Shown: piece after piece, positions 3,798 through 21,745 of the stretch
Layout: each line of letters begins with the position of its first letter
Numbering within the stretch: the stretch's first letter is position 1
Source: an uncultured Christensenellaceae bacterium
GTDB taxonomy: Bacteria > Bacillota > Clostridia > Christensenellales > Aristaeellaceae
Length of the DNA stretch: 41,153 bases
Reading direction: 5' to 3'
Assembly: GCA_905236495.1 (NCBI GenBank)
Contig: CAJOPV010000066.1
Span: 1-41,153 of the forward strand
Notes under the pieces: generated by a model
The model's input: the letters and a program-made list of their open reading frames with translations, nothing else
The model's database searches: none
What the model was told of the DNA's origin: nothing
Position numbers and translations under genes: made by a program

Positions 3798-5726
3798 ATG
3801 ATCGTTTTAACCGTACAGAACCTTCAGAAGGCTTTTGGGGGCAATCAGGTGCTCAAGGACGTTTCCTTGACCTTGCAGGACAGGCAGCGGATGGGGCTGG
3901 TGGGCGTCAACGGCTGCGGCAAAACAACGCTGCTGCGCATCCTGGCGGGCCTGGAAACGCCGGATGGCGGCTCCGTTTCCTATGCCCGGGACGTCCGGGT
4001 AGGGTACATGGAGCAGCAGTACGCCGTGCAGGGGGACGTCACGGTATTCGACGAATTGAAATCGGTTTATGAGCCGGTATTCGTTATGGAAGAAAAGCTG
4101 CGGGCCCTGGAACAGGAAATGGCCCGGGCGGATGAAGGAACGCTGAAACGGCTGGGGGATACCTATGCCCGGCTCAGCGACGCCTTCGAGAAGGCGGACG
4201 GCTACGGCTGGCGTTCCTCCATTTTCGGGGTACTGAGCGGCCTGGGCTTTACCAAAGAGCAGCACGATCAGCCCGCCCGGCTCTTATCCGGCGGAGAGCT
4301 GACAAGGCTTTCCCTGGCGAAGCTGCTTTTGCAGAAGCCCGACCTTTTGCTTCTGGACGAGCCTACCAACCATCTGGACTTATCCGCCCTGGATTGGCTG
4401 GAAAACTATCTGAACGAATACCGGGGCACGCTGCTGGTGGTGAGCCACGACCGCTATTTCCTGGATCACGTATGCACCCACGTGACGGAGCTGCTGCTGG
4501 GCACGGCGGAGCAGTACGCGGGGAATTATTCGGCCTATATGAGCCAGCGGGCGGAGCGGTTCGAGATCCGCATGCGGGCCTGGGAGCAGCAGCAAAAGCT
4601 CATCGCCCGGGAGGAGGCCATCATCGCTCGGTACAAATCCTTCAACCGGGAAAAATCCATCAAGGCGGCGGAGAGCCGGGAAAAGCGGCTGGAAAAGATC
4701 GAGCGGCTGGATAAGCCCCAGGACGAGCGCCAGGTGCGCTTTCGCTTTGAGGCCAAGCGCCGCACAGGGGACGACGTGCTGATCATAAAGGACCTTCAAA
4801 AATCCTTCGGGGATCGGACGCTGTTTTCGGGCGTGAATCTGCATCTGCGGGCCGGGGATCGGGTGGCATTGCTTGGGCCCAACGGCATCGGCAAATCAAC
4901 GCTTCTCAAGTGCCTGGTGGGGCAGGAAGCCCCGGACGGCGGCACCGTTCGCTGGGGGGCCAACGTGGATACGGGCTACTACGATCAAAAGCAGGAAAGC
5001 CTGCACGGGGATAAGACGGTGCTGGACGAGGTATGGGACGCCTTTCCCAGGCTGGAGCAGAGCCAGGTGCGCTCCGCCCTGGGGCTGTTCCTCTTTACCG
5101 GCGAGGACGTATTCATGCCCATCCGCACCCTGTCCGGCGGAGAAAAGGGCAGGGTGGCCCTGACCAAGCTGATGCTGAAAAAGGATAATCTTCTGCTCCT
5201 GGACGAGCCCACCAACCACCTGGATATGGACAGCCGGGAGGTGCTGGAGGACGCGCTGGAGAATTTTGAGGGCACCATCCTGGCGGTATCTCACGACCGT
5301 TATTTCATCAATCGCTTCGCCAGCCGCGTGGCGGTGCTGACGGAGGAGGGCGTGCGGGAATACCTGGGGAATTTCGACGATTACCAGCAGAAGCTCAAAT
5401 GGGAGCAAAGCCAGCAGGGCTACGACCCGAGATTTTCCGAAATGACCCGCACGGAAGCGGGGAAGGAAAAGAAAAAGCTGCGCTTGGCAAAGGAGCAGCT
5501 GAAGGCCCTTCGGGACGGGGTGAAGCGGGCGGAGGAGGCCGTGGCCCAGGCGGAGGCGGCCCTTGCCGCCCAGGAAGCGCTGATGGCGAAGGCGGAAATC
5601 TATGCCAACCCGGAAAAGGCCGCGGCGGCCGCGAAGGAATACCAGCGGCTGAAAGCGGCCCAGGCGGCGGCCTATGCCGACTGGGAACGGGCGGAAGAAG
5701 CGCTGCTGGACGGAGAAAACGCCTGA
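3798..5726 (+). CDS. ABC-F family ATPase (translation-associated, Uup/YdiF/EttA-like; no TM domain)
   Basis: Two ABC cassettes with Walker A GVNGCGKTT and GPNGIGKST and the signature LSGGE twice. There is an inter-domain linker and a C-terminal Ala/Glu/Lys coiled-coil tail. Confidence 0.85.
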   Translation: MIVLTVQNLQKAFGGNQVLKDVSLTLQDRQRMGLVGVNGCGKTTLLRILAGLETPDGGSVSYARDVRVGYMEQQYAVQGDVTVFDELKSVYEPVFVMEEKLRALEQEMARADEGTLKRLGDTYARLSDAFEKADGYGWRSSIFGVLSGLGFTKEQHDQPARLLSGGELTRLSLAKLLLQKPDLLLLDEPTNHLDLSALDWLENYLNEYRGTLLVVSHDRYFLDHVCTHVTELLLGTAEQYAGNYSAYMSQRAERFEIRMRAWEQQQKLIAREEAIIARYKSFNREKSIKAAESREKRLEKIERLDKPQDERQVRFRFEAKRRTGDDVLIIKDLQKSFGDRTLFSGVNLHLRAGDRVALLGPNGIGKSTLLKCLVGQEAPDGGTVRWGANVDTGYYDQKQESLHGDKTVLDEVWDAFPRLEQSQVRSALGLFLFTGEDVFMPIRTLSGGEKGRVALTKLMLKKDNLLLLDEPTNHLDMDSREVLEDALENFEGTILAVSHDRYFINRFASRVAVLTEEGVREYLGNFDDYQQKLKWEQSQQGYDPRFSEMTRTEAGKEKKKLRLAKEQLKALRDGVKRAEEAVAQAEAALAAQEALMAKAEIYANPEKAAAAAKEYQRLKAAQAAAYADWERAEEALLDGENA

Positions 5727-5751
5727 TACAGAAGAAAGGAACGGATCTGCC

Positions 5752-6597
5752 GTGCATCGCATTTTATGCTCCACCGGGGCGCTGATCGGGTTCCCCAACG
5801 GGCGGGACTACCGGCTGCTGAAGGGCTGCGAAGAAAAGCTTTCCTGCGACGGGCTGGAATTTATGATGTATGACAGCTGGTATTCCCAGCGCCGGGAGCT
5901 GACAGCTTTTTTGCGGTCGCTGCCCCTTCCCATCCCCTCGATGCACTGCGAAAAAAGCGTGGGGGAAAAGCTCTCCTCCGGCAATCGGGAGGAGACGGAA
6001 CGGGCCTTTTCGGATTTTCACGTCAACTGCGAAATCGCAGGGGAGATCGGCGCGGAAAAAATGGTGCTGCATCTGTGGAACGGGCAGCCCTCCGACAGCC
6101 GGATCGAAAACCATCTGGCGGCCTATGGCAAAATGAAGGAGGAGGCCGCACGATATGGCGTGCTGCTGACGGTGGAAAACGTGATCTGCGCCCGGTGGGA
6201 CCCGCTGACCCACTTCAAGGCGCTTCTTGATAAGGATCAAGACGCGGCTTTTACCTGGGATACCAAGCTGGCGGCCTTTCACGGGCAGACGGAGGCGCTG
6301 TACGACCCCCGAAACCAATGGCTGTGGGAGCATATCGCCCATCTGCACGTCAACGACTACGACGGAAGCACGACCACCTGGGGACACTTGAAAACGCTGC
6401 ACCTGGGGCGGGGCGGCATCGATTTTGCCCGGCTGTTTGATTTTCTGCCGCAGACGGGGTATCGGGGAGATTTCACCCTGGAGGCCACCGCCTTTCAGCC
6501 GGACGGCAGCATCCGCTGGGAGGATATGAACGAATCCATCAACAAACTTCGGTCTTTTTTAGCACCGTTAAAGGAGAGAGGCAGCCATGGAGAGTAA
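5752..6597 (+). CDS. Sugar phosphate isomerase/epimerase (xylose-isomerase-like TIM barrel) family protein
   Basis: Family-like pattern: ILCSTGALIG, KMVLHLWNG, LLTVENV, HLHVNDYD, GGIDFARLFDFL, FTLEA. The track ORF (5674) overlaps the ABC-F 3' end. I use in-frame GTG 5752 with GAAAGGA 11 nt upstream. The start choice is uncertain. Confidence 0.65.
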   Translation: MHRILCSTGALIGFPNGRDYRLLKGCEEKLSCDGLEFMMYDSWYSQRRELTAFLRSLPLPIPSMHCEKSVGEKLSSGNREETERAFSDFHVNCEIAGEIGAEKMVLHLWNGQPSDSRIENHLAAYGKMKEEAARYGVLLTVENVICARWDPLTHFKALLDKDQDAAFTWDTKLAAFHGQTEALYDPRNQWLWEHIAHLHVNDYDGSTTTWGHLKTLHLGRGGIDFARLFDFLPQTGYRGDFTLEATAFQPDGSIRWEDMNESINKLRSFLAPLKERGSHGE

Positions 6598-8490: not shown

Positions 8491-10926
8491 TTACAAAATC
8501 AGATCGGTCACCACGTCGTCCAGCACCGCCATGACGGTGGGCTTGCCCTTGTCCGCCAGGTCCTGCACCGGCAGCATATCGGACATCATGGGGGTCATGG
8601 CGCCGCCGTTTTGCAGCACGGTGAAGGCCCGGGAGGCGGTGATCCGGGCGGCGGCGGCAACGTAGGTGCCGGTGGAGCCGGATTTATTGAAGGAGACGCA
8701 CTTGACGCCCTTGCCGGCCCGGCCCTGGGGATCGAACAGGGCGCCGGTGAGCCGCTTGGCGTAGCCCCGTTCGGTAAAAAGCAGGATCTGATCGGATACG
8801 GCAATGGGGCAGGCCAGGATCACCTCGTCGTCCTGATCCAGCTTCATGCCCTTCACCCCGGCGCTGACCCGGCCCATTTCGGGCACCGTATCCAGCGGGA
8901 AGCGGATGCACATGCCCTTCCGGGAGACCATGAGCAGATCGTCCCCTTCCTCCGCCGGCACGACGCACAGAAGCCGATCGTCCCCCTTCAGGTTCACGGC
9001 GGCGAATTTGGACCGGCGCACGTCGTATTCCGCGGCGCTGGTGCGCTTCACCTGGCCCTGTCTGGTAAAGAAGATGAGGTCGCCCATGGCGTTCAGGCTG
9101 CCAGGCATGATGAGCAGGAGGGACACGCATTTTTCATCCGTTTCCAGCCCCGCCAGCACGCTGCTCAGCGCGCCGCCCCGATCCTTTGGCTTGTTCACCT
9201 CGTTCAGCGCGCCTACCGACAGGGGATAGCAGTTGCCCCGGTCGGTGAAGAAATAGAGGGTATGATCGGATTGGGTGTGGAACAGCCACCGGGCCATATC
9301 CCCTTCCTTTTCCGGCATATCCTGCTTTTCAAAGTACCGGGGAGCCATGCGGCGCAATTGCCCGCCCCGGGTAAGGAACACCACCGCCTCCTCCGGCAGG
9401 GGCGCTTCCTCCACGATGGGGGGCGTATCGTCCTCCTCTTCCTTCACGATCTGGGTACGGCGGTCATCGCCGTACTGATCGGCGATTTCCCGCAGCTCCT
9501 TTTTGATGACGGTGAGCAGCTTCTTTTCGCTTTTCAGGATGCCTTCCAGGGTATCGATGAGCTTGAGGATATCGGCGTATTCCTTCCGCAGGGCTTCGAT
9601 CTCCAGGCCGGTGAGGCGCTGGAGGCGCAGATCCAGGATGGCCTGGGCCTGCACGTCGGTAAAGCCGAAGCGCTCCATCAGCCTTTGCTTGGCTTCTTTG
9701 CCGTTCTTGCTGGCCCGGATCAGGGCAATGACCTCGTCCAGGTTATCCACGGCAACGATGAGCCCCTCCAGGATGTGGGCCCGGGCCTTGGCCTGCTCCA
9801 GTTCGTATTGGGTGCGGCGGGTCACCACGTCCTTCTGATGGCGGATGAAATGGGAAAGCACCGTTTTGAGCCCCATCAGCACCGGCTTGCCAGCCGCCAC
9901 CGCTACCATGTTCACCCCGAAGGTGACCTGCAGATCGCTGTATTTGTACAGATAAGCCAGCACCTTCTGGGGATTGGCTTCTTTTTTCAGCTCGATCACG
10001 GCCCGCAGCCCCGTGCGGTCGCTTTCGTCCCGGATATCGTGGATGCAGCCCAACTGGGCCTTCTTTTCCTCGCTGAGCTTCAGGATTTTTTCCAGCATCT
10101 GGGCTTTCGCCACGCCATATGGCACCTCGGTAATGACGAGCAGGGTGCGCCCGGAGGGCCCCGGCTCTATCTCCACCTTGGCCCGGACAGTCAATTTGCC
10201 CCGGCCCGTTTCGTAGGCGGCGCGGATCTCCGGGGTATCCAGCAGGATGCCGCCGGTGGGGAAGTCCGGCCCCGGCACGGCGCCCATGAGCTGATCCAGG
10301 GAAACATCCTCGTTATCGATCTGCATGCAGACCGCTTCCGTTACCTCCCTCAGGTTATGGGGTGGGATATTGGTGGCAAGGCCCACGGCGATGCCGCTGG
10401 CGCCGTTTACCAGGAGATTGGGGAACCGGGCGGGGAGCAGATCGGGCTCCTTCAGGGTATCGTCAAAATTCAGGCGGAAGGGCACCGTATCCTTTTCGAT
10501 ATCCCGCAGCATCTGCAGCGCCAGGGGGGCCATGCGGGCCTCGGTATAACGCATGGCGGCGGCGCTGTCGCCGTCGATGGAGCCGAAATTGCCGTGCCCG
10601 TCCACCATGACGCCCCGGAGGGAGTAGGGCTGGGCCATGCGGGTCAGGGCGTCATAGACGCTGGTATCCCCGTGGGGGTGATATTTGCCCAGGCAGTCGC
10701 CCACGATGCGGGCGCACTTGCGGTGGGGCTTGTCCGGCGTCAGGCCCAGTTCGTGCATGGTGAAGAGGATGCGCCGCTGCACGGGCTTCAGGCCGTCCTC
10801 CACCCGGGGAATGGCCCGCTCCAGGATCACGTATTCCGCGTAGGGCATCATGGATTGATGCAGCACGTCCTCCAGGGGCGTTTGGATGATCTCCTGCTGG
10901 ATAGGTTCGGGGGGCTGCTTGGGCAT
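8491..10926 (-). CDS. parC: Type IIA DNA topoisomerase subunit A (ParC-like; GyrA family)
   Basis: 811 aa with DGLKPVQRRIL, GKYHPHGD and AAMRYTEARM (catalytic Tyr motif), plus a beta-pinwheel-like C-terminal domain. It is paired B-then-A with the upstream gene. The locus is not next to dnaA/dnaN/recF-type genes. The KPVQRR (rather than KPVHRR) form is, from memory, ParC-like. The ParC versus GyrA assignment is not certain. Confidence 0.8.
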   Translation of the reverse strand: MPKQPPEPIQQEIIQTPLEDVLHQSMMPYAEYVILERAIPRVEDGLKPVQRRILFTMHELGLTPDKPHRKCARIVGDCLGKYHPHGDTSVYDALTRMAQPYSLRGVMVDGHGNFGSIDGDSAAAMRYTEARMAPLALQMLRDIEKDTVPFRLNFDDTLKEPDLLPARFPNLLVNGASGIAVGLATNIPPHNLREVTEAVCMQIDNEDVSLDQLMGAVPGPDFPTGGILLDTPEIRAAYETGRGKLTVRAKVEIEPGPSGRTLLVITEVPYGVAKAQMLEKILKLSEEKKAQLGCIHDIRDESDRTGLRAVIELKKEANPQKVLAYLYKYSDLQVTFGVNMVAVAAGKPVLMGLKTVLSHFIRHQKDVVTRRTQYELEQAKARAHILEGLIVAVDNLDEVIALIRASKNGKEAKQRLMERFGFTDVQAQAILDLRLQRLTGLEIEALRKEYADILKLIDTLEGILKSEKKLLTVIKKELREIADQYGDDRRTQIVKEEEDDTPPIVEEAPLPEEAVVFLTRGGQLRRMAPRYFEKQDMPEKEGDMARWLFHTQSDHTLYFFTDRGNCYPLSVGALNEVNKPKDRGGALSSVLAGLETDEKCVSLLLIMPGSLNAMGDLIFFTRQGQVKRTSAAEYDVRRSKFAAVNLKGDDRLLCVVPAEEGDDLLMVSRKGMCIRFPLDTVPEMGRVSAGVKGMKLDQDDEVILACPIAVSDQILLFTERGYAKRLTGALFDPQGRAGKGVKCVSFNKSGSTGTYVAAAARITASRAFTVLQNGGAMTPMMSDMLPVQDLADKGKPTVMAVLDDVVTDLIL

Positions 10927-10951
10927 AAGTGGATTCCTCCGTTAATGAGCC

Positions 10952-12928
10952 TCAGGATACGGTTTCCGTTTCCCGCTTCAGGTGCTCGTCAAAGTGATCG
11001 GCTTTGTTGAATTCGGCATGCTCGATGATATATTCCCGCCGGGGCTCCACCTTATCGCCCATGAGGACGGTGATGAGGGAATCGGCCTCCGCCGCGTCCT
11101 CGATGGTGACCTGCATGAGCTTGCGGTGGGTGGGGTCCATGGTGGTTTCCCAGAGCTGCTCAGGGTTCATTTCGCCAAGGCCCTTGTATCGCTGCAGGGT
11201 GTAGCCCTTGAGGCCCGTGGTGACCTTCTTTAGCTCCTTATCGTCATAGGCGTACTGGGTGCCGCCGCTCTTTTTGACGGCGTATAGGGGCGGCATGCCG
11301 ATGAATACGTGCCCGTCCGCCACCAGGTCCCGCATGTAGCGGAAAAAGAAGGTGAGCAGGATGGAGCGGATGTGGGCCCCGTCCTGATCCGCGTCCGCCA
11401 GGATGATGACCTTATGGTATTTGAGGGAGGATAGATCGAAGTCCTCCGCGATGCCGGTGCCCAGGGCCGTGATGATGGAACGGAATTCATCGTTTGCCAG
11501 CACCTGGTCCAGCCGCTTTTTTTCCACGTTCAGGGGTTTGCCGCGAAGGGGCAATATGGCCTGGAAGCGCCGGTCCCGGCCCTGCTTGGCGCTGCCGCCG
11601 GCGGAATCGCCCTCCACGATGAAAAGCTCGTTATCCACGGCCTTGCGGCCCGTGCAGGCGCTGAGCTTGCCCACCAGGGGCGTCGCCTCCAGCTGGGATT
11701 TGGCCCGGGCCACGTCCCGGGCTTTCCGGGTGGCTTCCCGCACCTTGGCGCTCTTGACCGCCTTTTCGATGATTTTCTGGCACAGGTCCTGATTTTTCAG
11801 GTTTTCCAGGAATTCATACAGCCGTTCGCTGACGATGGCCTCCACCGCCGGGCGCACCTCGGTGTTCCCCAGGCGGCCTTTGGTCTGGCCCTCGAACTGG
11901 GGGTTTTTCACCATGGTGGTGAGCACCACCGTGATCCCCTCCCGGAAATCCTCGCCGGAGAGGTTGTTATCCTTTTCCTTCAGGGCGCCGATCTTCCGGG
12001 CGTAATCGTTCAGGGATTTTGTCATGGCGGCCCGAAAGCCCATTTCGTGGGTGCCGCCCTCGCCGGTGGGGATGTTGTTCACATAGGAAAAGACGGATTC
12101 GGTGTAGCCGTCGGTGTATTGGATGGCGGCGGCGCAGAGAATATCGTCCTTCTTGCCTTCAAAATAGATGGGCTCGTCGTGGAGGGGCGTTTTATCCCGA
12201 TTCAGGAATTTCACGTAATCCACGATGCCCCCGGCGAAGCAGTACTCGGCCCAGGCCTTGCCTTCTTCCTTGGTGCGCTCATCGGTAAAGGAGATGTTGA
12301 GCCCCTTATTGAGGTAAGCCAATTCCCGCAGGCGGCGGCGCACCGTATCGCCGCTGAACACCGTTTCCTCAAACACCGTATCATCCGGCAGGAAACGGAC
12401 CAGGGTGCCCCGCTTCCGGGTGTTGCCCAGCTTTTCCAGGCCCGTCACCGGGTGGCCCGCCTTCCATTTCTTTTCCTTGGGGTCGAACCAGTTTTCATAC
12501 CGCTGGGCGTAATGGCTCCAATCCCGGAAGATATCCACGGTGAGCCATTTGCTCAGGGCGTTCACCACCGACGCGCCCACGCCGTGCAAACCGCCTGAGT
12601 AGGCATAATTATCATTGCCGAATTTGCCGCCGGCGTGCAGGCGGGTGAAGATCACCTCCACCCCCGGCACCCCCAGCACCGGGTGATTATCCACCGGCAT
12701 GCCCCGCCCGTTATCCCACACGGAGGCGGAGCCGTCCTTGTGCAGCGTCACCGCCACCTCCGTGGCGAAGCCGGCCATTGCCTCGTCGATGGCGTTATCC
12801 ACGATCTCCCACAATAGATGATGCAGCCCCCGGCTGCCCGTGGAGCCGATATACATGCCGGGCCGCATGCGCACCGCGTCCAGCCCCTCCAGGATCTTGA
12901 TACTGCCAGCGTTATAAGACTGCGCCAT
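10952..12928 (-). CDS. parE: Type IIA DNA topoisomerase subunit B (ParE-like; GyrB family)
   Basis: 658 aa with GHKL N-box LHHLLWEIVDNAIDEA, Toprim EGDSAGGSAKQGRDR and PLRGKPLNVEK. It lies immediately upstream of the A subunit. Confidence 0.8.
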   Translation of the reverse strand: MAQSYNAGSIKILEGLDAVRMRPGMYIGSTGSRGLHHLLWEIVDNAIDEAMAGFATEVAVTLHKDGSASVWDNGRGMPVDNHPVLGVPGVEVIFTRLHAGGKFGNDNYAYSGGLHGVGASVVNALSKWLTVDIFRDWSHYAQRYENWFDPKEKKWKAGHPVTGLEKLGNTRKRGTLVRFLPDDTVFEETVFSGDTVRRRLRELAYLNKGLNISFTDERTKEEGKAWAEYCFAGGIVDYVKFLNRDKTPLHDEPIYFEGKKDDILCAAAIQYTDGYTESVFSYVNNIPTGEGGTHEMGFRAAMTKSLNDYARKIGALKEKDNNLSGEDFREGITVVLTTMVKNPQFEGQTKGRLGNTEVRPAVEAIVSERLYEFLENLKNQDLCQKIIEKAVKSAKVREATRKARDVARAKSQLEATPLVGKLSACTGRKAVDNELFIVEGDSAGGSAKQGRDRRFQAILPLRGKPLNVEKKRLDQVLANDEFRSIITALGTGIAEDFDLSSLKYHKVIILADADQDGAHIRSILLTFFFRYMRDLVADGHVFIGMPPLYAVKKSGGTQYAYDDKELKKVTTGLKGYTLQRYKGLGEMNPEQLWETTMDPTHRKLMQVTIEDAAEADSLITVLMGDKVEPRREYIIEHAEFNKADHFDEHLKRETETVS

Positions 12929-12993
12929 AGAGCACCTCGTTTTTCATTGCCTGGCGGCCCGGGAAAGCCCAGCCTCCCGCAGCCACTTATTTC

Positions 12994-13022
12994 ATTATAA
13001 CACAAGATATTGATAATTGCAA
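12994..13022 (-). promoter_or_regulatory. Sigma-A-type promoter for the parE-parC operon
   Basis: On the minus strand: TTGCAA (13022-13017), 17-nt spacer, TGtTATAAT (hexamer 12999-12994). It lies about 65 nt upstream of the parE ATG in an AT-rich island. Confidence 0.55.
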
Positions 13023-13073
13023 AAGTTTCCTACACAAAAGATTGAAAAACATACGAATATTTTTCATCGCGGA

Positions 13074-13102
13074 TTGACTTATCCTGACGCCTGTGATAGA
13101 AT
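13074..13102 (+). promoter_or_regulatory. Sigma-A-type promoter for the SCIFF operon
   Basis: TTGACT (13074-13079), 17-nt spacer, TGaTAGAAT extended -10 (hexamer 13097-13102), 36 nt upstream of the precursor ATG. Confidence 0.6.
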
Positions 13103-13138
13103 AAACGGGAATTTGGAATGCATTGGGAGGATTCTGCC

Positions 13139-13297
13139 ATGAAACACATTCAGACTTTGACTGCCCGCACCCTGTGCGAAAGCGCCAAGAACGGCGGCTG
13201 CGGCGAATGCCAGACCTCTTGCCAGTCTGCCTGCAAGACCAGCTGCGGCATTGCCAATCAGCAGTGCGAAAACAAGGCTCAGCAGGAAAACAAATAA
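13139..13297 (+). CDS. scfA: SCIFF-family (six-Cys-in-forty-five) ranthipeptide precursor peptide, 52 aa
   Basis: Own translation gives MKHIQTLTARTLCESAKNGGCGECQTSCQSACKTSCGIANQQCENKAQQENK. GGGAGG at 13125-13130 lies 8 nt before the ATG. The signature GGCGECQTSCQSACKTSC..NQ.CEN is present. It sits directly upstream of the cognate rSAM/SPASM maturase. It is absent from the ORF track because it is under 60 aa. Confidence 0.9.
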   Translation: MKHIQTLTARTLCESAKNGGCGECQTSCQSACKTSCGIANQQCENKAQQENK

Positions 13298-13314
13298 TCC
13301 TGCTTCTGCGCCAG

Positions 13315-13340
13315 AATGCCGCCCGCAGGCGGCATTTTCT
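13315..13340 (+). terminator. Intra-operon hairpin (candidate partial terminator/attenuator or processing-stability element) between precursor and maturase
   Basis: Perfect 9-bp stem AATGCCGCC (13315-13323) / GGCGGCATT (13328-13336) with loop CGCA, followed by a short T-run (TTCT). Confidence 0.5.
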
Positions 13341-13359
13341 ATGATAAGGGGATTGACGC

Positions 13360-14742
13360 ATGATTCATCGGTATCAATTGGGCGGCATGAACATGGTGGT
13401 GGATACCTGCTCGGGCAGCGTTCACGCGGTGGATGAGATCGCCTACGAGCTCATCGGCCTGTACGAGGACATGCCCCGGGATGAGATCATCCGTGCTTTG
13501 GGCGCCCGTTTTTGCGATCAGGAGGGCGTGACGGAAAAGGACATCGCCGAATGCTACGACCAGGTGACGGCGCTGAAAGAAAACGGGCAGCTTTTCGCCC
13601 CGGATACCTTCGAACCCCTGGCGGGCGAGCTGAAAAGCCGCAGCGCCGGGATCGTGAAGGCGCTATGCCTCCACGTGGCCCACACCTGCAACCTGAACTG
13701 CGCCTACTGCTTTGCCAGCCAGGGGAAATACCACGGGGATCGGGCGCTGATGACGTTTGAAGTGGGAAAGCAGGCCCTGGATTTTCTCATCGCCCATTCC
13801 GGGAATCGGCACAACCTGGAGGTGGATTTTTTCGGCGGGGAGCCGCTGATGAATTTCGACGTGGTGAAGCGTCTGGTGGCCTATGCCCGGAGCATCGAAA
13901 AGCAGCATAACAAGAATTTCCGCTTTACTCTCACCACCAACGGGGTGCTCATCGACGACGACGTGATCGATTTTGCAAACCGGGAATGCAGCAACGTGGT
14001 CTTATCCCTGGACGGACGGAAAGAAGTGCACGATCGGTTCCGGGTGGACTACGCGGGGAAGGGCAGCTGGGATCGGATCGTGCCCAAGTTCCAGCGCTTG
14101 GTGCGGGCCCGGGGCGGGAAAAACTATTACATGCGGGGCACCTTTACCCACCAGAATCCTGATTTTCTCCAGGATATCCAGGCCATGCTGGACCTGGGCT
14201 TTACGGAGCTGAGCATGGAGCCGGTGGTCTGCGCTCCCGGGGATGAAAACGCCCTGACAAAGGAAGATCTGCCCACGGTGCTTCGGCAGTATGAGGAGCT
14301 GGCGGAGCTGATGAAAAAACGCCGGAAGGAGGGCAGGCCCTTTACCTTCTATCATTACATGATCGATCTCAAGGGCGGGCCCTGCGTTTATAAGCGTATT
14401 TCCGGCTGCGGCAGCGGCACGGAATACATGGCGGTGACGCCCTGGGGCGATCTGTACCCCTGCCATCAGTTCGTGGGAGAAGAGCAATTCAGGCTGGGCA
14501 ACGTATGGGAGGGCGTAACCAATCCCGCCGTGCAGCAGGAATTTGCCGACTGCAACGTATATGCCCGGCCCGAATGCCGGGATTGCTGGGCTAAACTGTA
14601 TTGCTCCGGGGGCTGCGCCGCTAACGCTTACCACGCCACCGGCACCGTCCGGGGCGTGTATGCTTACGGGTGCGAGCTGTTCCGCAAGCGCATGGAATGC
14701 GCCATCATGCTGGAGGCCTTCCGGCTGCTGGATGAAGCATGA
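13360..14742 (+). CDS. scfB: SCIFF radical SAM/SPASM maturase (thioether-forming)
   Basis: 460 aa. The N-terminus MIHRYQLGGMNMVVDTCSGSVHAVDE is typical of this family. The radical SAM motif is CNLNCAYC. The C-terminal SPASM motif is CRDCWAKLYCSGGC (Cx2Cx5Cx3C), preceded by CGSGTEYMAVTPWGDLYPC. AAGGGGA lies 7 nt upstream of the ATG. Confidence 0.9.
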   Translation: MIHRYQLGGMNMVVDTCSGSVHAVDEIAYELIGLYEDMPRDEIIRALGARFCDQEGVTEKDIAECYDQVTALKENGQLFAPDTFEPLAGELKSRSAGIVKALCLHVAHTCNLNCAYCFASQGKYHGDRALMTFEVGKQALDFLIAHSGNRHNLEVDFFGGEPLMNFDVVKRLVAYARSIEKQHNKNFRFTLTTNGVLIDDDVIDFANRECSNVVLSLDGRKEVHDRFRVDYAGKGSWDRIVPKFQRLVRARGGKNYYMRGTFTHQNPDFLQDIQAMLDLGFTELSMEPVVCAPGDENALTKEDLPTVLRQYEELAELMKKRRKEGRPFTFYHYMIDLKGGPCVYKRISGCGSGTEYMAVTPWGDLYPCHQFVGEEQFRLGNVWEGVTNPAVQQEFADCNVYARPECRDCWAKLYCSGGCAANAYHATGTVRGVYAYGCELFRKRMECAIMLEAFRLLDEA

Positions 14743-16097
14743 TGGATACGCCGATCTGTGATTTTGTTCGGGCCTACCGGGAGAAGGCGGGCCTCCGGCT
14801 GCATATGCCGGGCCATAAGGGGATAGGGCCCCTGGGCTGCGAACCGTGGGATATCACCGAGATCGTTGGGGCGGATGAACTGTACCGCGCCCGGGGGATC
14901 ATCCGCCGGAGCGAGGAAAATGCCGCCCGGCTCTTTGGCGCGGGGAAAACGGTCTATTCCACCGAAGGCTCCTCCCTGTGCATCCGGGCCATGATCTGCC
15001 TGGCGCTTTTGAACGCCCGGCAGGCAGGCAGGCAGCCCCTGATCCTGGCGGGCCGGAACGCGCACCGGGCGCTGATTTCCGCCGCCGCCCTGACCGGGGC
15101 CGAAATACGGTGGGTTTTCGATGAAAAAGACCAAAGTATGCTTTCCTGCAGCCTCACGCCCGACGCTTTGGAATCCGAGCTGAACGCGCTGGGGGAGCCC
15201 ATCGCCGGGGTATATGTCACCAGCCCGGATTATCTGGGGAACATGCTGGATATCGGGGCCCTGCAGGCGGTATGCAGGCGGCATGATACGCCCTTGCTGG
15301 TTGATAACGCCCACGGGGCTTACCTGAAATTTTTGACCGAGGATCGGCACCCCATGACGCTGGGAGCTGATCTTTGCTGCGATTCGGCCCACAAAACGCT
15401 GCCGGTGCTGACGGGCGGGGCATACCTGCACGTTGGGAAGCGCGCCCCTTCCTTGTTTGCCGAGCAGGCGGAGGAGGCCATGGCCCTGTTCGCCTCCACC
15501 AGCCCGTCTTATCTCACGCTGCAATCCCTGGATGCCTGCAACGCCTGCTTGGACGGGGAATTTCCATTGGCATTGAATCGCCTGGCGGCGCGGGCGGCGG
15601 GAATGAAGGAGAAGCTGAAAGCCTGCGGCTTTGGCCTCACGGGAGACGAGCCTGCCAAAATCACCCTGATGCCCAAGGCCCTGGGCTATACGGGCTATGA
15701 ACTGCAGGCCGTTTTGCGCGCCCGCGGCATGGAATGTGAGTTTGCCGACCCTGATTTTGTGACGCTGATGCTGTCGCCGGCTCTGACGGACGGGGAACTG
15801 GACGCAGCGGAACGGGTGCTTACGGAAATCCGGGCAAAAGCCCCGATCATAGAAGGCCCGCCGCCCCTGCCCAGGCCAAGGCGCGTCCTTTCCATCCGGG
15901 AAGCCGCGCTGCTTCCCTCCAGGGAAGTGCCGACGGAGGAAGCCGCAGGTCGCGTGCTGGCGGACGCTCATGTGGGCTGCCCGCCCTGCGTGCCCATCCT
16001 GATATGCGGGGAAGCCGTGGACGAAGCCGCCCTTGCCTGCTTTCGCTATTACGGCGTGGAAACATGCCGGGTGATCGAAGCCATGGAAAGTCATTAA
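14739..16097 (+). CDS. PLP-dependent decarboxylase, Orn/Lys/Arg decarboxylase (OKR_DC_1) fold
   Basis: 452 aa with LHMPGHKG near the N-terminus, the PLP-Lys motif DSAHKTLP, and a C-terminal GCPPCVPILICGE resembling the family YPPGIP..PGE motif. The ATG overlaps the scfB stop (ATGA, 14739-14742). Confidence 0.8.
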   Translation: MMDTPICDFVRAYREKAGLRLHMPGHKGIGPLGCEPWDITEIVGADELYRARGIIRRSEENAARLFGAGKTVYSTEGSSLCIRAMICLALLNARQAGRQPLILAGRNAHRALISAAALTGAEIRWVFDEKDQSMLSCSLTPDALESELNALGEPIAGVYVTSPDYLGNMLDIGALQAVCRRHDTPLLVDNAHGAYLKFLTEDRHPMTLGADLCCDSAHKTLPVLTGGAYLHVGKRAPSLFAEQAEEAMALFASTSPSYLTLQSLDACNACLDGEFPLALNRLAARAAGMKEKLKACGFGLTGDEPAKITLMPKALGYTGYELQAVLRARGMECEFADPDFVTLMLSPALTDGELDAAERVLTEIRAKAPIIEGPPPLPRPRRVLSIREAALLPSREVPTEEAAGRVLADAHVGCPPCVPILICGEAVDEAALACFRYYGVETCRVIEAMESH

Positions 16098-16112: not shown

Positions 16113-16170
16113 CAGCGCATCGACTTTGTCGATGCGCTGAGCTGCTCTTTCGAGCAGCCTTTTGCTTTGT
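16113..16170. terminator. Tandem hairpin terminator shared by the convergent SCIFF operon and rimO
   Basis: Hairpin 1 is a perfect 12-bp stem CAGCGCATCGAC (16113-16124) / GTCGATGCGCTG (16128-16139). Hairpin 2 is GCTGCTC (16141-16147) / GAGCAGC (16152-16158), followed by CTTTTGCTTTGT. Confidence 0.75.
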
Positions 16171-17487
16171 CTAAAGTGCTTTTGCCGTCAGGTCGTAGGT
16201 ATCCGCCCCGGTGATCTTTGCCTGGACGAACTGCCCTTCCTGAAGCGGCTGATCGCTCAACAGGGCGATCTCGCCGTCCGCGTCCGGCGCCTCCCATTGG
16301 GATCTGGCGGTGTAATGCAATCCGTTGTGCCCGGTCACCAGCACCGTTTGGACGCTGCCCAGGCGGCTTTGATTGCGCCGGAGGCTGATGCGGGCCTGCA
16401 GGGCCATGAGACGGTCCAGGCGCTCCTGCTTGACCTCCTCCGGCACCTGATCGGGGAAGGCGGCGGCGGGGGTATCCTCCTCCGGGGAATAGGCGAAGGC
16501 TCCCATGCGGTCAAAGGCCGTTTCCTCGGTGAAATCCAGGAGACGCTTAAAATCATCCTCCGTTTCTCCGGGAAAGCCCACGATGAAGGTGGTGCGCAGG
16601 CAGAAGCCCATTTCCCGGGCGGCGGCGAGCATTTCCTTCGTGTGTTCTGCGGCGCCGCGCCGGTTCATTTTCTTAAGCAATCCCGGCGACGCATGCTGCA
16701 GGGGCAGATCCAGGTACTTGCAGATGTTTTCCCGGGCCGCCATGGTTTCCAGGAGGCCCATGTCCGTTTCATCGGGATACATGTACAGGCTGCGCAGCCA
16801 TTTAACCCCGGGGAGGACGGCGGCCTCCTTCAAAAGCTCGGCAAGGGAGGAACCGATATCGGCGCCGTATCGGGTGGTATCCTGGGCGATGAGAATATGC
16901 TCCCGCACGCCCTGATCGGAAAGCGCCCTGATCTCCGCTAAAATATCCTTCATGGGCCGGGAACGGTAGGGGCCCCGGATCAGGGGGATGGCGCAGTAGG
17001 TGCAGCGGTTGTCGCAGCCGTCGCCCGTTTTGACGTAGGCGGAATAGGCCGGGGTCGTCAGGATGCGCCCGCACTCAAAAAAGCCGGAGGACCTGGCGGT
17101 ATCCGCCGGGCGGCTGCCGGAAAGGGCGTTTTCAAGGTGCTCGGTCAAATGGGCGTACTGGGCCACCCCCAGCAGGCAGTCGATCTCCGGCATGTCCCGG
17201 AGCAGATCGTCCTTATACCGCTGGGCCAGGCAGCCGGTGACGCAGAGCAATCTGCACCGGCCCGTTTTTTTGTATTCCGCCATTTCCAGGATGGCGTCGA
17301 TGGATTCCTCCTTGGCGGGGGCGATAAAACCGCAGGTATTCACGATCAGGATATCCGCGTCCTTTGGCTCCTTGGTGATGCGCACCCCCGCGTCCCGAAG
17401 CAGGGACAGCATCTGCTCCGAATCCACCCGGTTTTTTACGCACCCCAGGGAAATCATCCCCGCGGTGAGGCCGTTCAGCTTTGCCAT
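16171..17487 (-). CDS. rimO: Ribosomal protein S12 methylthiotransferase RimO (MiaB-family radical SAM)
   Basis: 438 aa with a UPF0004 N-domain (ISLGCVKNRVDSE, NTCGF), the radical SAM motif CDNRCTYC and a C-terminal TRAM-like domain. The length and end sequence are RimO-like rather than MiaB-like. Confidence 0.75.
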   Translation of the reverse strand: MAKLNGLTAGMISLGCVKNRVDSEQMLSLLRDAGVRITKEPKDADILIVNTCGFIAPAKEESIDAILEMAEYKKTGRCRLLCVTGCLAQRYKDDLLRDMPEIDCLLGVAQYAHLTEHLENALSGSRPADTARSSGFFECGRILTTPAYSAYVKTGDGCDNRCTYCAIPLIRGPYRSRPMKDILAEIRALSDQGVREHILIAQDTTRYGADIGSSLAELLKEAAVLPGVKWLRSLYMYPDETDMGLLETMAARENICKYLDLPLQHASPGLLKKMNRRGAAEHTKEMLAAAREMGFCLRTTFIVGFPGETEDDFKRLLDFTEETAFDRMGAFAYSPEEDTPAAAFPDQVPEEVKQERLDRLMALQARISLRRNQSRLGSVQTVLVTGHNGLHYTARSQWEAPDADGEIALLSDQPLQEGQFVQAKITGADTYDLTAKAL

Positions 17488-17633: not shown

Positions 17634-19238
17634 ATGATCCGAATTGGCAATCTGAAAGTGCCCCTGGACGCGGACGCAGACGCGCCGCTTAAGATCGCGC
17701 TGCAAAAGATCAAGGCGGACGAGGGCCGGGTGATCTCCTGGCGGATCGGCAAAAAAAGCGTGGACGCCCGGGACAAGGGAAACGTGCATTTCGTGATGGC
17801 GGTGGACGTAGCCCTGAAAGGGGAAGAAAAGCTGCTCAAAGCCTTGAAGCCCGGCGTCGCCTCCCCCGTACAGCCGCCCTACGCGCCGCCGGCGGTGAGG
17901 GGAGAGTACCGGGGGCTTCGGCCCGTGATCGCCGGGTTCGGCCCGGGGGGCATGTTCGCCGCCCTGACGCTGGCCCGGGCCGGGCTGCGCCCCATCGTTC
18001 TGGAGCGGGGCCAAAGGGTGGAGGAACGAAAGAAAACCGCAGCCGTGTTCGCGGAGACGGGGAAGCTGGACCCCGAAAGCAACATTCAATTTGGCGAGGG
18101 CGGCGCGGGGGCCTTTTCCGACGGGAAGCTGACCACGGGCATCAAGGACCCGAGATGCCAATTCGTATTGAATGAATTGCATGCCCACGGCGCGCCGGAG
18201 GAAATCCTTTATCTGGCCCGGCCCCATATCGGCACGGATCGGCTTCCCCAGGTCGTCAGAGCCATCCGGGAGGAGATCGCTGCGCTGGGCGGGGATATTT
18301 TCTTTTCCATGAAGCTGACCGAAATCCGGCTGCGGCATAACGCGCTGGAGGCGGTAATCTGCCGCGGCCCTGAGGGAGAGAGGGAATTCCCCGCGGACTG
18401 CTTGATCCTCGCCATCGGGCACAGCGCGGCGGATACCCAGCGGATGCTTTATTACGCCGGGGTGAACATGATCCAGAAGCCCTTTTCCGTAGGCGCCCGG
18501 ATCGAGCATCCCCAAGCCCTCATCAACCGCAGCCAGTACGGCGGCTTTGCCCGCCATCCGGCGTTGGGCGCGGCGGAATACCATCTTTCCTGCCGCCTGC
18601 CGGACGGGCGGGGGGCCTATACCTTCTGCATGTGCCCCGGCGGCACGGTGGTGCCCGCCGCCAGCCGGGAAGGGGGATTGTGCGTCAACGGCATGAGCGC
18701 CTTTGCCCGGGACGGAGTGAACGCCAACGCAGCGCTTTTGGTGGATGTGCGGCCTCAGGACTTTGGCGACGATCATCCTCTTTCGGGCTTTGCCCTCCAG
18801 CGCGCCTGGGAGGAAAAGGCCTTCCGGGCGGGGGGAGGCGATTACCGGGCCCCGGTGCAGCGGGCGGAGGACCTGATGCAAAGCAGGCCCACCGTGAAGC
18901 TGGGGGACGTGACGCCCACCTATCGCCCCGGCGTTGCCTGCGCCGATTTTCGGGATATCCTGCCCTCCTTTGCCTATCAGGGCCTGCAGGGGGCCATCCG
19001 CGCCTTCGACCGGCAATTGAAGGGCTTTTACCTGCCCGACGCGGTGCTGACGGCGGTGGAGAGCCGCTCCTCCTGCCCGGTGAGGGTGACGCGGGATCAG
19101 CGGTTTGAAAGCAGCGTGGGCGGCGTGTATCCCTGTGGGGAAGGCGCGGGCTATGCCGGGGGCATCATGAGCGCTGCGGTGGATGGCGTAAGGGCAGCGG
19201 AAGCGGCCATGAAAAACGCGGGGATCATGGAGGAATAA
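17634..19238 (+). CDS. FAD/NAD(P)-dependent oxidoreductase (COG2509-type uncharacterised FAD-dependent dehydrogenase)
   Basis: The start is trimmed from track 17481 to ATG 17634 (MIRIGNLKVPLD...), with GGAAAGGAGG at 17615-17624. The dinucleotide-binding motif is IAGFGPGGMFAALTLARAG. Overall resemblance is to the family that begins with a small N-terminal domain followed by an FAD domain. Confidence 0.7.
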   Translation: MIRIGNLKVPLDADADAPLKIALQKIKADEGRVISWRIGKKSVDARDKGNVHFVMAVDVALKGEEKLLKALKPGVASPVQPPYAPPAVRGEYRGLRPVIAGFGPGGMFAALTLARAGLRPIVLERGQRVEERKKTAAVFAETGKLDPESNIQFGEGGAGAFSDGKLTTGIKDPRCQFVLNELHAHGAPEEILYLARPHIGTDRLPQVVRAIREEIAALGGDIFFSMKLTEIRLRHNALEAVICRGPEGEREFPADCLILAIGHSAADTQRMLYYAGVNMIQKPFSVGARIEHPQALINRSQYGGFARHPALGAAEYHLSCRLPDGRGAYTFCMCPGGTVVPAASREGGLCVNGMSAFARDGVNANAALLVDVRPQDFGDDHPLSGFALQRAWEEKAFRAGGGDYRAPVQRAEDLMQSRPTVKLGDVTPTYRPGVACADFRDILPSFAYQGLQGAIRAFDRQLKGFYLPDAVLTAVESRSSCPVRVTRDQRFESSVGGVYPCGEGAGYAGGIMSAAVDGVRAAEAAMKNAGIMEE

Positions 19239-19703: not shown

Positions 19704-20297
19704 ATGAAAATCGATACCCTGGTGCTGGGCCCGGTGCAGACCAATTGCTATCTTGTGTATCTGGAGGGAAGCGGCGAGGCTGTGGCGATCGATCCGGCGG
19801 AGGAAGGAGAGAAGATCAAAGCCGCGCTGGATGGAAAGACCCTCCGGGCCATTCTTTTGACCCACGGGCATTTCGACCATACGGGAGCCCTGAAGGATTT
19901 CCCCGGCGTGCCCATTTACATCCATCCCGCCGATGATATCATGCTGGAGGACGCGGCCTTCAGCGCCGGAGGCATGATCGGGGATACGGCGCCCCGGCCC
20001 AAGGCAACGGATTATGTGCAGGAAGGCACGAAGCTGCATCTGGCGGGGCTGGATATTTCCGTCATGCACCTGCCGGGACATACCCAAGGCAGCGTTGCCT
20101 ACCTGATCGGCGATGCGCTGTTTTCGGGGGATACGCTGTTTGCCCGGGGCTTTGGGCGCACCGATCTGCCCGGAGGCAGCATGGCGGATGAAATGCGGTC
20201 CATCAAGCGTTTGCTGCGGCTGGAAAAGAACTGGATCGTTCTTCCCGGTCACGGCGAACCCACCACCCTGAACGCGGAACGGGAGTTTTTTCTATGA
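19704..20297 (+). CDS. MBL-fold metallo-hydrolase (glyoxalase II-like)
   Basis: 197 aa with the THGHFDH metal-binding motif, plus a later HLPGHT and a D...H pattern. Confidence 0.8.
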   Translation: MKIDTLVLGPVQTNCYLVYLEGSGEAVAIDPAEEGEKIKAALDGKTLRAILLTHGHFDHTGALKDFPGVPIYIHPADDIMLEDAAFSAGGMIGDTAPRPKATDYVQEGTKLHLAGLDISVMHLPGHTQGSVAYLIGDALFSGDTLFARGFGRTDLPGGSMADEMRSIKRLLRLEKNWIVLPGHGEPTTLNAEREFFL

Positions 20298-21745
20298 TCG
20301 TATCCTTTCTGACCCCCACCCCCGGCTTTGCCAACGACCTGGCGGACGTGGCGCGGATCTTCCTTGGCAATATCGACTGCCGGGTGAACGAGCCCGGCGG
20401 GGAGATGACCGTGACCCACACGGAAGCCGTGACGAATGGCTTAAGGACCTGCCGGGTGCGGATCGAAGGCCCCTTTGGGGCGGATGAAACCCGGGAAGCC
20501 CCCGTATCGCCGGATCCGCTGCTGGAAAAAAGGTATCACAAGCGGCTCATCAAGCAAACGCTGTACGACGGCATGAAGCGGGCTCTGGGCCGCACCCCGC
20601 CCTGGGGCAGCCTGACGGGCATCCGGCCCACCCGCCTTCTGTACGAGGCCATGGGCCGGGGACTGACGCTGGAGGAAGCGGAAGGGGAGACGAAAGCGCT
20701 TTTTGACGTGCGGGAGGATAAGGCGGCGCTGCTTCGGGAAATCGTACAGGTGCAGACCGGCCTGCCCCAGCCCTCCGCCCTGGACGCGGACCTGTATGTG
20801 GGCATCCCTTTCTGCGTATCCCGCTGCGCTTACTGCTCCTTTTTGAGCGGGGAAGTGGGGAAGGGAAAGGAATTGCCGCCCTACGTGAATGCCCTGGAGA
20901 GGGAAATCGAAGGCACCCTGGCCCTGATCGCCGAAAAGGGCTTGCGGCCCCGGGCGTTTTATATGGGCGGGGGCACCCCCACTGCTTTGAGCGCGGAGCA
21001 GCTGGGGCGGGTGCTTTCCGCCTGCCGGCCCTTTATCCGAAACGCCCTGGAGGTGACGGTGGAGGCCGGGCGGCCCGATACCATCGACCGGGAAAAGCTG
21101 ACCGTGATCCGGGAGGCGGGGGCCGGGCGCATTTCCATCAACCCCCAGACCATGCACGATGAAACCTTGCGGCGCATCGGCAGGCGGCACACCCGGGCCC
21201 AGACGGAGGCGGCCTATGCCCTGGCGAGGGAGGCCGGCTTTGCCCACATCAACATGGATCTGATCGCCGGGCTGCCGGGAGAAAACCTGGAGATGTTTCT
21301 TGAGACCCTTGCCTGGAGCCGGGCCCTTTCCCCGGAAAGCCTGACGGTGCACACCCTGTCCATCAAGCGCAGCAGCCTTCTGCACTTGTGGGAGGCCCAG
21401 CTGCCGGACGGGGACATGGCGGGGGACATGGTGGATGCCGGACGGCGGGAGGCGGCGGATCGGGGCATGCGGCCCTATTACCTGTACCGGCAAAAGCACA
21501 TGGCGGGAAACCTGGAAAACGTGGGCTATGCCCTGCCGGGCCGGGAATGTCTGTATAACGTGGATATGATGGAGGAAACGGGCCACGTGATGGCTGTCGG
21601 CGCCGGGGCCATCAGCAAACGGGTGGACCCAAACAGGGGCCGCATCGAACGGGCCCCCAACGTAAGCGACGTGAGCCACTATATCGCCCGGGTGGATGAA
21701 ATGCTGGCAAGGAAAAAGGAACTGTGGCGCGAGGAATGGCGGTAA
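20294..21745 (+). CDS. hemZ: HemN/HemZ-family radical SAM protein (coproporphyrinogen-dehydrogenase-like, HemZ-type N-terminal extension)
   Basis: 483 aa with the radical SAM motif CVSRCAYC, GGGTPT and a HemN_C-like end. The ATG overlaps the MBL stop (ATGA). The symbol follows common annotation; the true substrate is unknown. Confidence 0.65.
   Translation: MIVSFLTPTPGFANDLADVARIFLGNIDCRVNEPGGEMTVTHTEAVTNGLRTCRVRIEGPFGADETREAPVSPDPLLEKRYHKRLIKQTLYDGMKRALGRTPPWGSLTGIRPTRLLYEAMGRGLTLEEAEGETKALFDVREDKAALLREIVQVQTGLPQPSALDADLYVGIPFCVSRCAYCSFLSGEVGKGKELPPYVNALEREIEGTLALIAEKGLRPRAFYMGGGTPTALSAEQLGRVLSACRPFIRNALEVTVEAGRPDTIDREKLTVIREAGAGRISINPQTMHDETLRRIGRRHTRAQTEAAYALAREAGFAHINMDLIAGLPGENLEMFLETLAWSRALSPESLTVHTLSIKRSSLLHLWEAQLPDGDMAGDMVDAGRREAADRGMRPYYLYRQKHMAGNLENVGYALPGRECLYNVDMMEETGHVMAVGAGAISKRVDPNRGRIERAPNVSDVSHYIARVDEMLARKKELWREEWR

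Follow-up and report, generated by a model that had tools for sequence, protein, structure and literature searches.

SCIFF peptides were reportedly defined on bioinformatic grounds by Haft and Basu in 2011, and curated models of the family have existed since that year. They occur in almost all Clostridia and, according to a pangenome study, are widespread over the orders of that class, with no more than one copy per species. By the family rule, the precursor gene lies within ~500 bp of the gene for its ScfB-type maturase, a radical SAM enzyme, and the two were found to be paired in 234 of 234 cases (PMC5300114). The first SCIFF to be reconstituted in vitro was Tte1186a with Tte1186. The position of the cross-link is given in two ways in reviews, where a single Cys32-Thr37 thioether is described for Tte1186a and CteA in vitro, and a Cys32-Thr34 link through the Thr C-gamma, from which the name ranthipeptide derives, is described for co-expression in E. 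coli (PMC8326336, PMC8172795); the reviews call this Thr37-versus-Thr34 discrepancy unresolved. In addition, an EXAFS study places the substrate Cys on auxiliary cluster I of the enzyme (PMC10177961).

The window (the whole stretch of DNA analysed in this study, 41,153 nucleotides) carries a SCIFF precursor gene, scfA, followed by its predicted maturase gene, scfB, and a gene for a PLP-dependent enzyme. Taken as a whole, the region is very probably a standard SCIFF locus of an uncultured Clostridia bacterium from gut or rumen, Oscillospiraceae/Acutalibacteraceae in type, in which a promoter, an attenuating hairpin, read-through and a terminator would shape expression and the product would carry a Cys32-Thr34 cross-link. 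The features on which this reading draws, and the neighbouring genes referred to below, are as follows:

8491-12928, minus strand: type IIA topoisomerase B/A gene pair, divergent from scfA, whose scores fall between those for the gyrase and the topoisomerase IV models
13074-13102, plus strand: predicted sigma-70-type promoter, made up of TTGACT (13074-13079), a 17-nt spacer and TAGAAT (13097-13102)
13125-13130, plus strand: Shine-Dalgarno sequence GGGAGG, 8 nt 5' of the scfA ATG (sequence read)
13139-13297, plus strand: scfA, encoding a 52-aa SCIFF ranthipeptide precursor (both family HMMs, purifying selection, public gene calls)
13313-13338, plus strand: 11-bp GC-rich stem-loop (AGAAUGCCGCC-CGCA-GGCGGCAUUUU) running into UUUUCUAU (fold)
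13346-13351, plus strand: AAGGGG, a Shine-Dalgarno-like sequence 8 nt 5' of the scfB ATG (sequence read)
13360-14742, plus strand: scfB, encoding a predicted radical SAM/SPASM thioether-forming SCIFF maturase of 460 aa (TIGR03974, Pfam, CteB)
14739-16097, plus strand: gene for a 452-aa PLP-dependent protein of the Orn/Lys/Arg-decarboxylase fold (PF01276, 2X3L match)
16113-16158, no strand assigned: two adjacent hairpins (16113-16139, 16141-16158) followed by CUUUUGCUUUG, with a terminator-like site at 16141-16158
16171-17487, minus strand: RimO, a radical SAM housekeeping enzyme (TIGR01125, 450 versus a cut-off of 357)
20294-21745, plus strand: HemZ, a radical SAM housekeeping enzyme (TIGR03994, 459 versus a cut-off of 321)

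Translation of 13139-13297 on the plus strand yields MKHIQTLTARTLCESAKNGGCGECQTSCQSACKTSCGIANQQCENKAQQENK followed by a stop, which is exactly the 52-aa peptide that the first-pass annotation had quoted for an ORF running from the ATG at 13139 to the TAA at 13297. The GGGAGG ribosome binding site (with its 8-nt spacer) and the TTGACT-17-TAGAAT promoter proposed in that annotation were likewise read as described. The promoter matches at 10 of 12 positions in a sigma-70 scan, which returned four sites in total versus 1.4 expected per 3.7 kb, and has an extended -10 TG at 13094-13095, one base 5' of TAGAAT; its function is a prediction. Two other points call for a small correction. The six Cys of the family name are those of the core, in which direct reading places them at residues 21, 24, 28, 32, 36 and 43, but the peptide as a whole has seven, the extra one being Cys13 in the leader (approximately residues 1-20). 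The gap of 210 bp said to lie between parE and the radical SAM gene is the distance from the topoisomerase start (12928) to the peptide ATG, but the whole gap, up to 13360, measures 431 bp. Past the core, the peptide ends in the tail KAQQENK. An alternative start at 13118, which would give a peptide of 59 aa, was rejected on several counts: alignments to the family models start from the Met at 13139, the Shine-Dalgarno sequence sits between the two ATGs, an in-frame upstream ATG occurs in merely 17 of 78 relatives, and the long form is absent from public data, in which the 52-aa form is on record.

In the HMM search that had been suggested along with the initial assignment to the SCIFF-type precursors, the peptide scored above the cut-off of both curated models, reaching 77.1 bits with TIGR03973 (six_Cys_in_45; cut-off 50), where it spans positions 1-43 of 43, and 79.7 bits with PF13165 (SCIFF; cut-off 27), where it spans positions 1-44 of 44. 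The outcome that the annotation had named as refuting, a lack of any significant match to the SCIFF model, thus did not occur. Both matches begin at residue 2 and have E-values of ~1e-22. The six-Cys block, GGCGECQTSCQSACKTSC....C, is present in scfA and invariant in 123 distinct relatives, and the peptide matches 5,418 public protein clusters (E <= 0.001). Furthermore, gene calls for the exact 52-aa peptide exist in 3-4 public metagenome contigs, where its neighbours are those of the window and a PF13165 match has been precomputed, and the cluster that contains it has 99 members, of which the named ones are annotated by NCBI as "six-cysteine ranthipeptide SCIFF". On this sequence evidence scfA is a real gene and a textbook SCIFF member, and with this peptide on record in public assemblies and its cluster already bearing the SCIFF name, the window locus is an ordinary, previously catalogued member of a well-known family. 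Its conserved hairpin, its Cys13 and Gly37 and its PLP gene, described below, are modest leads for SCIFF specialists and do not make it a new system. Departures from the single-domain form were also seen in the public data: two complete SCIFF domains are fused in a single 91-aa peptide (P0121, P0122), and two other proteins (P0130 and P0197, the latter at L081 4002-4190) repeat part of the GGCGECQTS block internally.

Conservation of the locus was examined in a close set of 80 loci encoding ScfB relatives 74-82% identical to the window scfB product, all of which belong to MAGs of uncultured Clostridia from the rumen or gut (among them Oscillospiraceae, Acutalibacteraceae and Faecousia). A scfA ORF lies directly upstream of scfB in 75 of the 80 loci and ~1 kb upstream in two (L034 and L046); no SCIFF ORF was found in the upstream DNA of the contigs examined for two more (L004 and L015), and in one (L040) the upstream DNA is too short for its presence to be judged. 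The two loci in which no SCIFF ORF was found (scfB at 1454-2812 in L004 and at 6001-7380 in L015) encode ScfB proteins 77-81% identical to that of the window, and both have the PLP gene downstream. Among the 77 scfA ORFs that were aligned, nearly all codons vary at the DNA level, and yet residues 19-41 together with Cys43-Glu44 are invariant, save for one Gly22-to-Ser replacement. The core thus bears the mark of purifying selection, with a pS of 0.53 versus a pN of 0.011 (window versus all) and synonymous sites roughly half saturated. The start signals are also conserved, the ATG being preceded by a Shine-Dalgarno-like motif in 78 of 78 related loci, and the gene order extends beyond the close set, as scfB follows scfA in all distant SCIFF loci with enough DNA. 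In the window, 62 nt lie between the scfA stop (13297) and the scfB start (13360).

The next gene had been proposed to encode a dedicated radical SAM/SPASM maturase, and this is borne out by a score of 753 bits with TIGR03974 (rSAM_six_Cys; cut-off 425) and by an end-to-end alignment with CteB (PDB 5WGG/5WHY; E 1.8e-161, 52% identity). The protein stays below the cut-off of the "not_ScfB" orphan exception model NF040492 (554.6, cut-off 855), and its Pfam matches are Radical_SAM, Fer4_12 and SPASM, the last at 22.1 with a cut-off of 21.5. The CX3CX2C motif is formed by C110, C114 and C117, which align with Cys of CteB, as do all eight of the SPASM Cys (C342, C350, C368, C406, C409, C415, C419 and C438), the expected ligands of two auxiliary [4Fe-4S] clusters. 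At the other end of the protein, residues 1-100, a candidate leader-recognition domain of the RRE type, align with residues 6-97 of CteB, the N-terminal domain of which holds the CteA leader in 5WGG. Public gene calls (L162-L164, 6255-7604) start scfB at the Met of MVVDTC and give a protein of 449 aa; the start at 13360, which lies 11 codons earlier (13360-13392) and gives 460 aa, is backed by the CteB and TIGR03974 alignments and by the AAGGGG.

The spacer between scfA and scfB is marked by a hairpin whose presence is more widely conserved than its sequence. Hairpins of <= -13 kcal/mol occur in 76 of 76 close loci with a short spacer, several of them with unrelated stem sequences, and in a subsample a hairpin of -13 kcal/mol or stronger was found in 40 of 40 spacers versus 1 of 40 after shuffling. 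Among diverse SCIFF loci (n = 64 distinct sequences), a hairpin of -10 kcal/mol or stronger occurs within 90 nt past the stop in 57 of 64 cases versus 24 of 64 shuffled ones, with mean energies of -17.5 (real) versus -9.0 (shuffled). Within the window clade, the stem sequence itself (AATGCCGCC...GGCGGCATT) is unusually conserved. A strict intrinsic-terminator scan returned no call at 13313-13338, because part of the U-run is paired within the stem; since that scan gave no call, it is the conservation of the structure that points to attenuation. Just 22 nt, including AAGGGG, separate the hairpin from the scfB ATG, which would leave no room for a separate scfB promoter. The hairpin is probably a leaky terminator-like attenuator that keeps peptide mRNA in excess over maturase mRNA, and its conservation across the SCIFF family suggests a large excess of peptide over enzyme. 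The arrangement of a precursor gene, a stem-loop and modification genes with no promoter between them is also that of nisA-nisB and sboA-alb; the likeness of the scfA-hairpin-scfB layout to these attenuators is architectural only.

Expression of the unit could accordingly be pictured as a short series of steps. The sigma-70 promoter would drive scfA, the hairpin past the scfA stop would probably terminate most transcripts and so leave an abundant short peptide mRNA, and read-through would supply scfB and the translationally coupled PLP gene. Transcription would then stop at 16113-16158, where the two hairpins together fold with -35.8 kcal/mol (z = -3.96) and which, facing the convergent rimO, is the predicted end of the scfA-scfB-PLP unit.

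By analogy with CteB and Tte1186, ScfB would receive the N-terminal ScfA leader at its own N-terminal peptide-recognition domain, a core Cys thiolate would bind the open iron of auxiliary cluster I, and the radical SAM cluster would cleave SAM to give a 5'-deoxyadenosyl radical that takes a hydrogen from a Thr side chain. A thioether from Cys to the Thr C-gamma would form, here most likely between Cys32 and Thr34. The choice of Thr34 follows from the pattern of conservation at the candidate acceptors. Position 37 (codon 37, 13247-13249) is Gly in 68 of 68 distinct peptides of the window clade, compared to Thr in 43 of 55 peptides elsewhere, and Thr26 and Thr34 are invariant in 123 of 123 distinct peptides; the window peptide itself has Cys32 and Thr34 and lacks Thr37, which is replaced by the Gly of GIANQ. 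Because residue 37 is Gly here and both Thr26 and Thr34 are invariant, residue 37 cannot be the site of a cross-link shared by the whole family. This favours Thr34 as the acceptor, in this peptide at least, with Cys32 as its most likely partner. This assignment is an extrapolation, since the SCIFF links mapped to date all come from Thr37-type peptides, with maturases ~50% identical. The clade therefore offers a natural Thr37-to-Gly variant in which Thr34 is invariant, and it bears on the dispute between Cys32-Thr37 and Cys32-Thr34. A second clade-specific position is Cys13 of the leader (NLCESAK; codon 13, 13175-13177), which is found in 67 of 68 distinct clade peptides versus 2 of 55 elsewhere and is thus conserved in a part of the peptide that is generally assumed to be lost.

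The first-pass annotation had called the mature structure in vivo, the removal of the leader, export and the physiological role of these peptides largely open, in agreement with the reviews (PMC8326336, PMC8172795). In a C. beijerinckii disruption (Chen 2020), expression of agr and sporulation genes was reportedly altered, and this was read as quorum sensing (PMC8102284, PMC8326336). It is conceivable, though on balance improbable, that the modified peptide is instead an intracellular housekeeping factor, for example one that is redox-active or metal-binding, rather than a secreted signal or an antibiotic. No protease or exporter gene was found within the scfA-scfB-PLP unit of the window, the family does not exceed one copy per species over the Clostridia orders, and its wide spread has been said to argue against an antimicrobial role (PMC8326336). 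Moreover, the core is invariant even though the maturases of the clade differ by 20-25%, whereas secreted signals typically diversify, and the leader Cys13 is also conserved. Set against these points is the quorum-sensing interpretation of the C. beijerinckii disruption. In the standard SCIFF locus that we favour, the cross-linked peptide may be processed further and may act in signalling. Among the close loci, L046 has an alpha/beta-hydrolase-fold gene (5042-5989, plus strand; weak Abhydrolase_1 match) between scfA and scfB, which may represent either a candidate leader peptidase or a simple insertion, and L034 has a similar scfA-scfB gap of ~1 kb.

The third gene of the unit encodes a protein that matches PF01276 (OKR_DC_1) with 90.8 bits (cut-off 27) and reaches no NCBIfam equivalog cut-off. 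Its best PDB match and best structural relative is 2X3L (E 1.2e-27, full length), a short OKR_DC_1 protein of Staphylococcus aureus described as an "Orn/Lys/Arg decarboxylase family protein", and the PLP-lysine HK motif, SAHKTLP in the window, aligns with SFHKTLP of that structure. The scfB stop overlaps the PLP ATG in an ATGA at 14739-14742. The same overlap occurs in 48 of 77 loci, with a gap of 0-30 nt in 25 more, and the PLP gene lies directly downstream of scfB in 73 of 75 judgeable close loci. An apparent displacement of the PLP gene by "+2.7 kb" in six loci was dismissed as a best-HSP artefact; the two that were checked (L006 and L046) have the gene right after scfB. The survey was widened to 80 further metagenome SCIFF loci, reached with a 52-aa probe that joined the CteA leader to a core from P0121, plus one locus reached from a divergent peptide. 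Operon adjacency of a PLP gene from this subfamily was seen in 80 of 84 judgeable Gly37-type (G[IV]ANQ) loci, compared to 2 of 38 judgeable Thr37-type (TV[GA]NQ) loci (0 of 30 for the TVG form). In L081, L137, L147, L154, L159 and L161 it lies upstream of scfA, and in the window clade and in L118, L133 and L151 it lies downstream of scfB. Over their full length the proteins of the two arrangements are ~32% identical; they have their best PDB match in common, and none of them reaches a curated equivalog.

These patterns raise the question of whether the PLP enzyme belongs to the SCIFF pathway of Gly37-type lineages as a dedicated third component, possibly acting on the peptide itself or producing a small amine to be used with it, rather than being a co-transcribed housekeeping gene. 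We regard this as unlikely, although several observations are in its favour: the PLP gene is the sole conserved neighbour (the topoisomerase and rimO flanks recur in just 1-3 of 80 loci), its association separates Gly37-type from Thr37-type loci, the linkage survives rearrangement to either side of scfAB, the stop and start frequently overlap, and all of the linked proteins fall in a single subfamily, at ~32% identity and with a common best PDB match. However, the same subfamily occurs in bacteria without SCIFF, its nearest structure (2X3L) being from S. aureus, which is not known to carry a SCIFF system, so that the PLP family is not SCIFF-specific. In addition, the protein has no curated function match, most SCIFF clades have no PLP gene, and the pangenome study found just the precursor and maturase to be conserved across ranthipeptide groups. 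The correlation of Gly37 with the PLP gene may merely reflect phylogeny, and PLP decarboxylases that act on peptides are rare. For the fuller version of this idea, in which Gly37-type SCIFF form a three-gene unit with a PLP enzyme that makes or uses the peptide, a functional leader Cys13 and a cross-link at Thr34 or Thr26, the prospects are equally slight. If true, the three-gene unit would constitute a distinct SCIFF sub-system whose peptide lacks Thr37, and the recurrent link in any case gives a candidate partner for the physiological role of SCIFF peptides. The reading that we prefer is still the standard SCIFF locus, in which the PLP gene would be supplied by read-through along with scfB.

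That the scfA frame could be a chance opening, or a mere regulatory upstream ORF of the radical SAM gene, is scarcely credible, for although its 52 codons fall under the floors of many ORF callers and the antisense frame across it is likewise open in 71 of 78 loci, it passes both curated HMMs (E ~1e-22), encodes an invariant core despite half-saturated synonymous sites, keeps its ATG and Shine-Dalgarno sequence in every one of the 78 loci, and has 5,418 homologous clusters in public data. The openness of the antisense frame carries no independent weight, since the sense peptide is invariant, and the antisense ORF at 12987-13361 was rejected as a gene because the substitution pattern fits the sense frame. 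What stands is scfA as the precursor gene of a standard SCIFF locus.

The rest of the window is consistent with the earlier statement that this is the only RiPP-like system present, as the other radical SAM genes are those of RimO and HemZ. The parE label that had been given to the upstream gene is not established: the topoisomerase B subunit passes a GyrB-subfamily model alone (910 > 740) and falls under the equivalog cut-offs of both gyrB (867 < 882) and parE (810 < 900), and the A subunit reaches neither the gyrA nor the parC cut-off. The topoisomerase genes and rimO were considered and rejected as parts of the SCIFF system on the basis of their rare recurrence beside it. Other nearby genes are likewise of a housekeeping kind and encode a MatE transporter, an ABC-F ATPase, an FAD-dependent protein, an MBL-fold hydrolase, a glycosyltransferase and an AAA ATPase whose best match, stage V sporulation protein K, is sub-threshold. 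Rfam and tRNA scans of the whole window gave no match, and the region therefore does not represent a known RNA element; acquisition as a horizontally transferred island was rejected because GC content is flat at ~0.6 across the unit. The FAD-dependent gene downstream of rimO (window 17634-19238) corresponds to a single 534-aa call in L164, whereas in the corresponding regions of L162 (10445-11743) and L163 (10445-12092), on contigs that are otherwise near-identical, the calls are split or on the opposite strand, which suggests assembly or strain differences.

Among the closest described systems is CteA/CteB (thermocellin, from Clostridium thermocellum). The maturases are 52% identical over their full length with all of the radical SAM and SPASM Cys kept, and the two peptides share the same numbering, with an identical leader pattern MKHI..GGC21 and an identical core C21-x2-C24-x3-C28-x3-C32-x3-C36. 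The differences lie at position 13, which is Lys in CteA and Cys in the window peptide, and at position 37, where CteA has the Thr given as the in vitro acceptor in the reviews and the window peptide has Gly. The tail of the window peptide is also longer than that of CteA and rich in K, Q and E, and the window operon carries the PLP gene, while none was found near the loci with the most CteA-like peptides (L082, L083). Tte1186a/Tte1186 from Caldanaerobacter subterraneus belongs to the window peptide's own family and is characterised by a single Cys-Thr thioether and a substrate Cys on auxiliary cluster I, although its reported acceptor, Thr37, is absent from the window peptide. More distantly, PapA/PapB (freyrasin) and QhpD, further thioether maturases of the ranthipeptide type, have the radical SAM/SPASM fold in common with ScfB, which matches the PapB model with E 5e-83 (279, below the cut-off of 340) and the QhpD model with E 2e-74 (251, below the cut-off of 453). 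The substrates of those enzymes carry Cys-X3-Asp or Cys-Asp/Glu links, whereas the window peptide has the SCIFF core.
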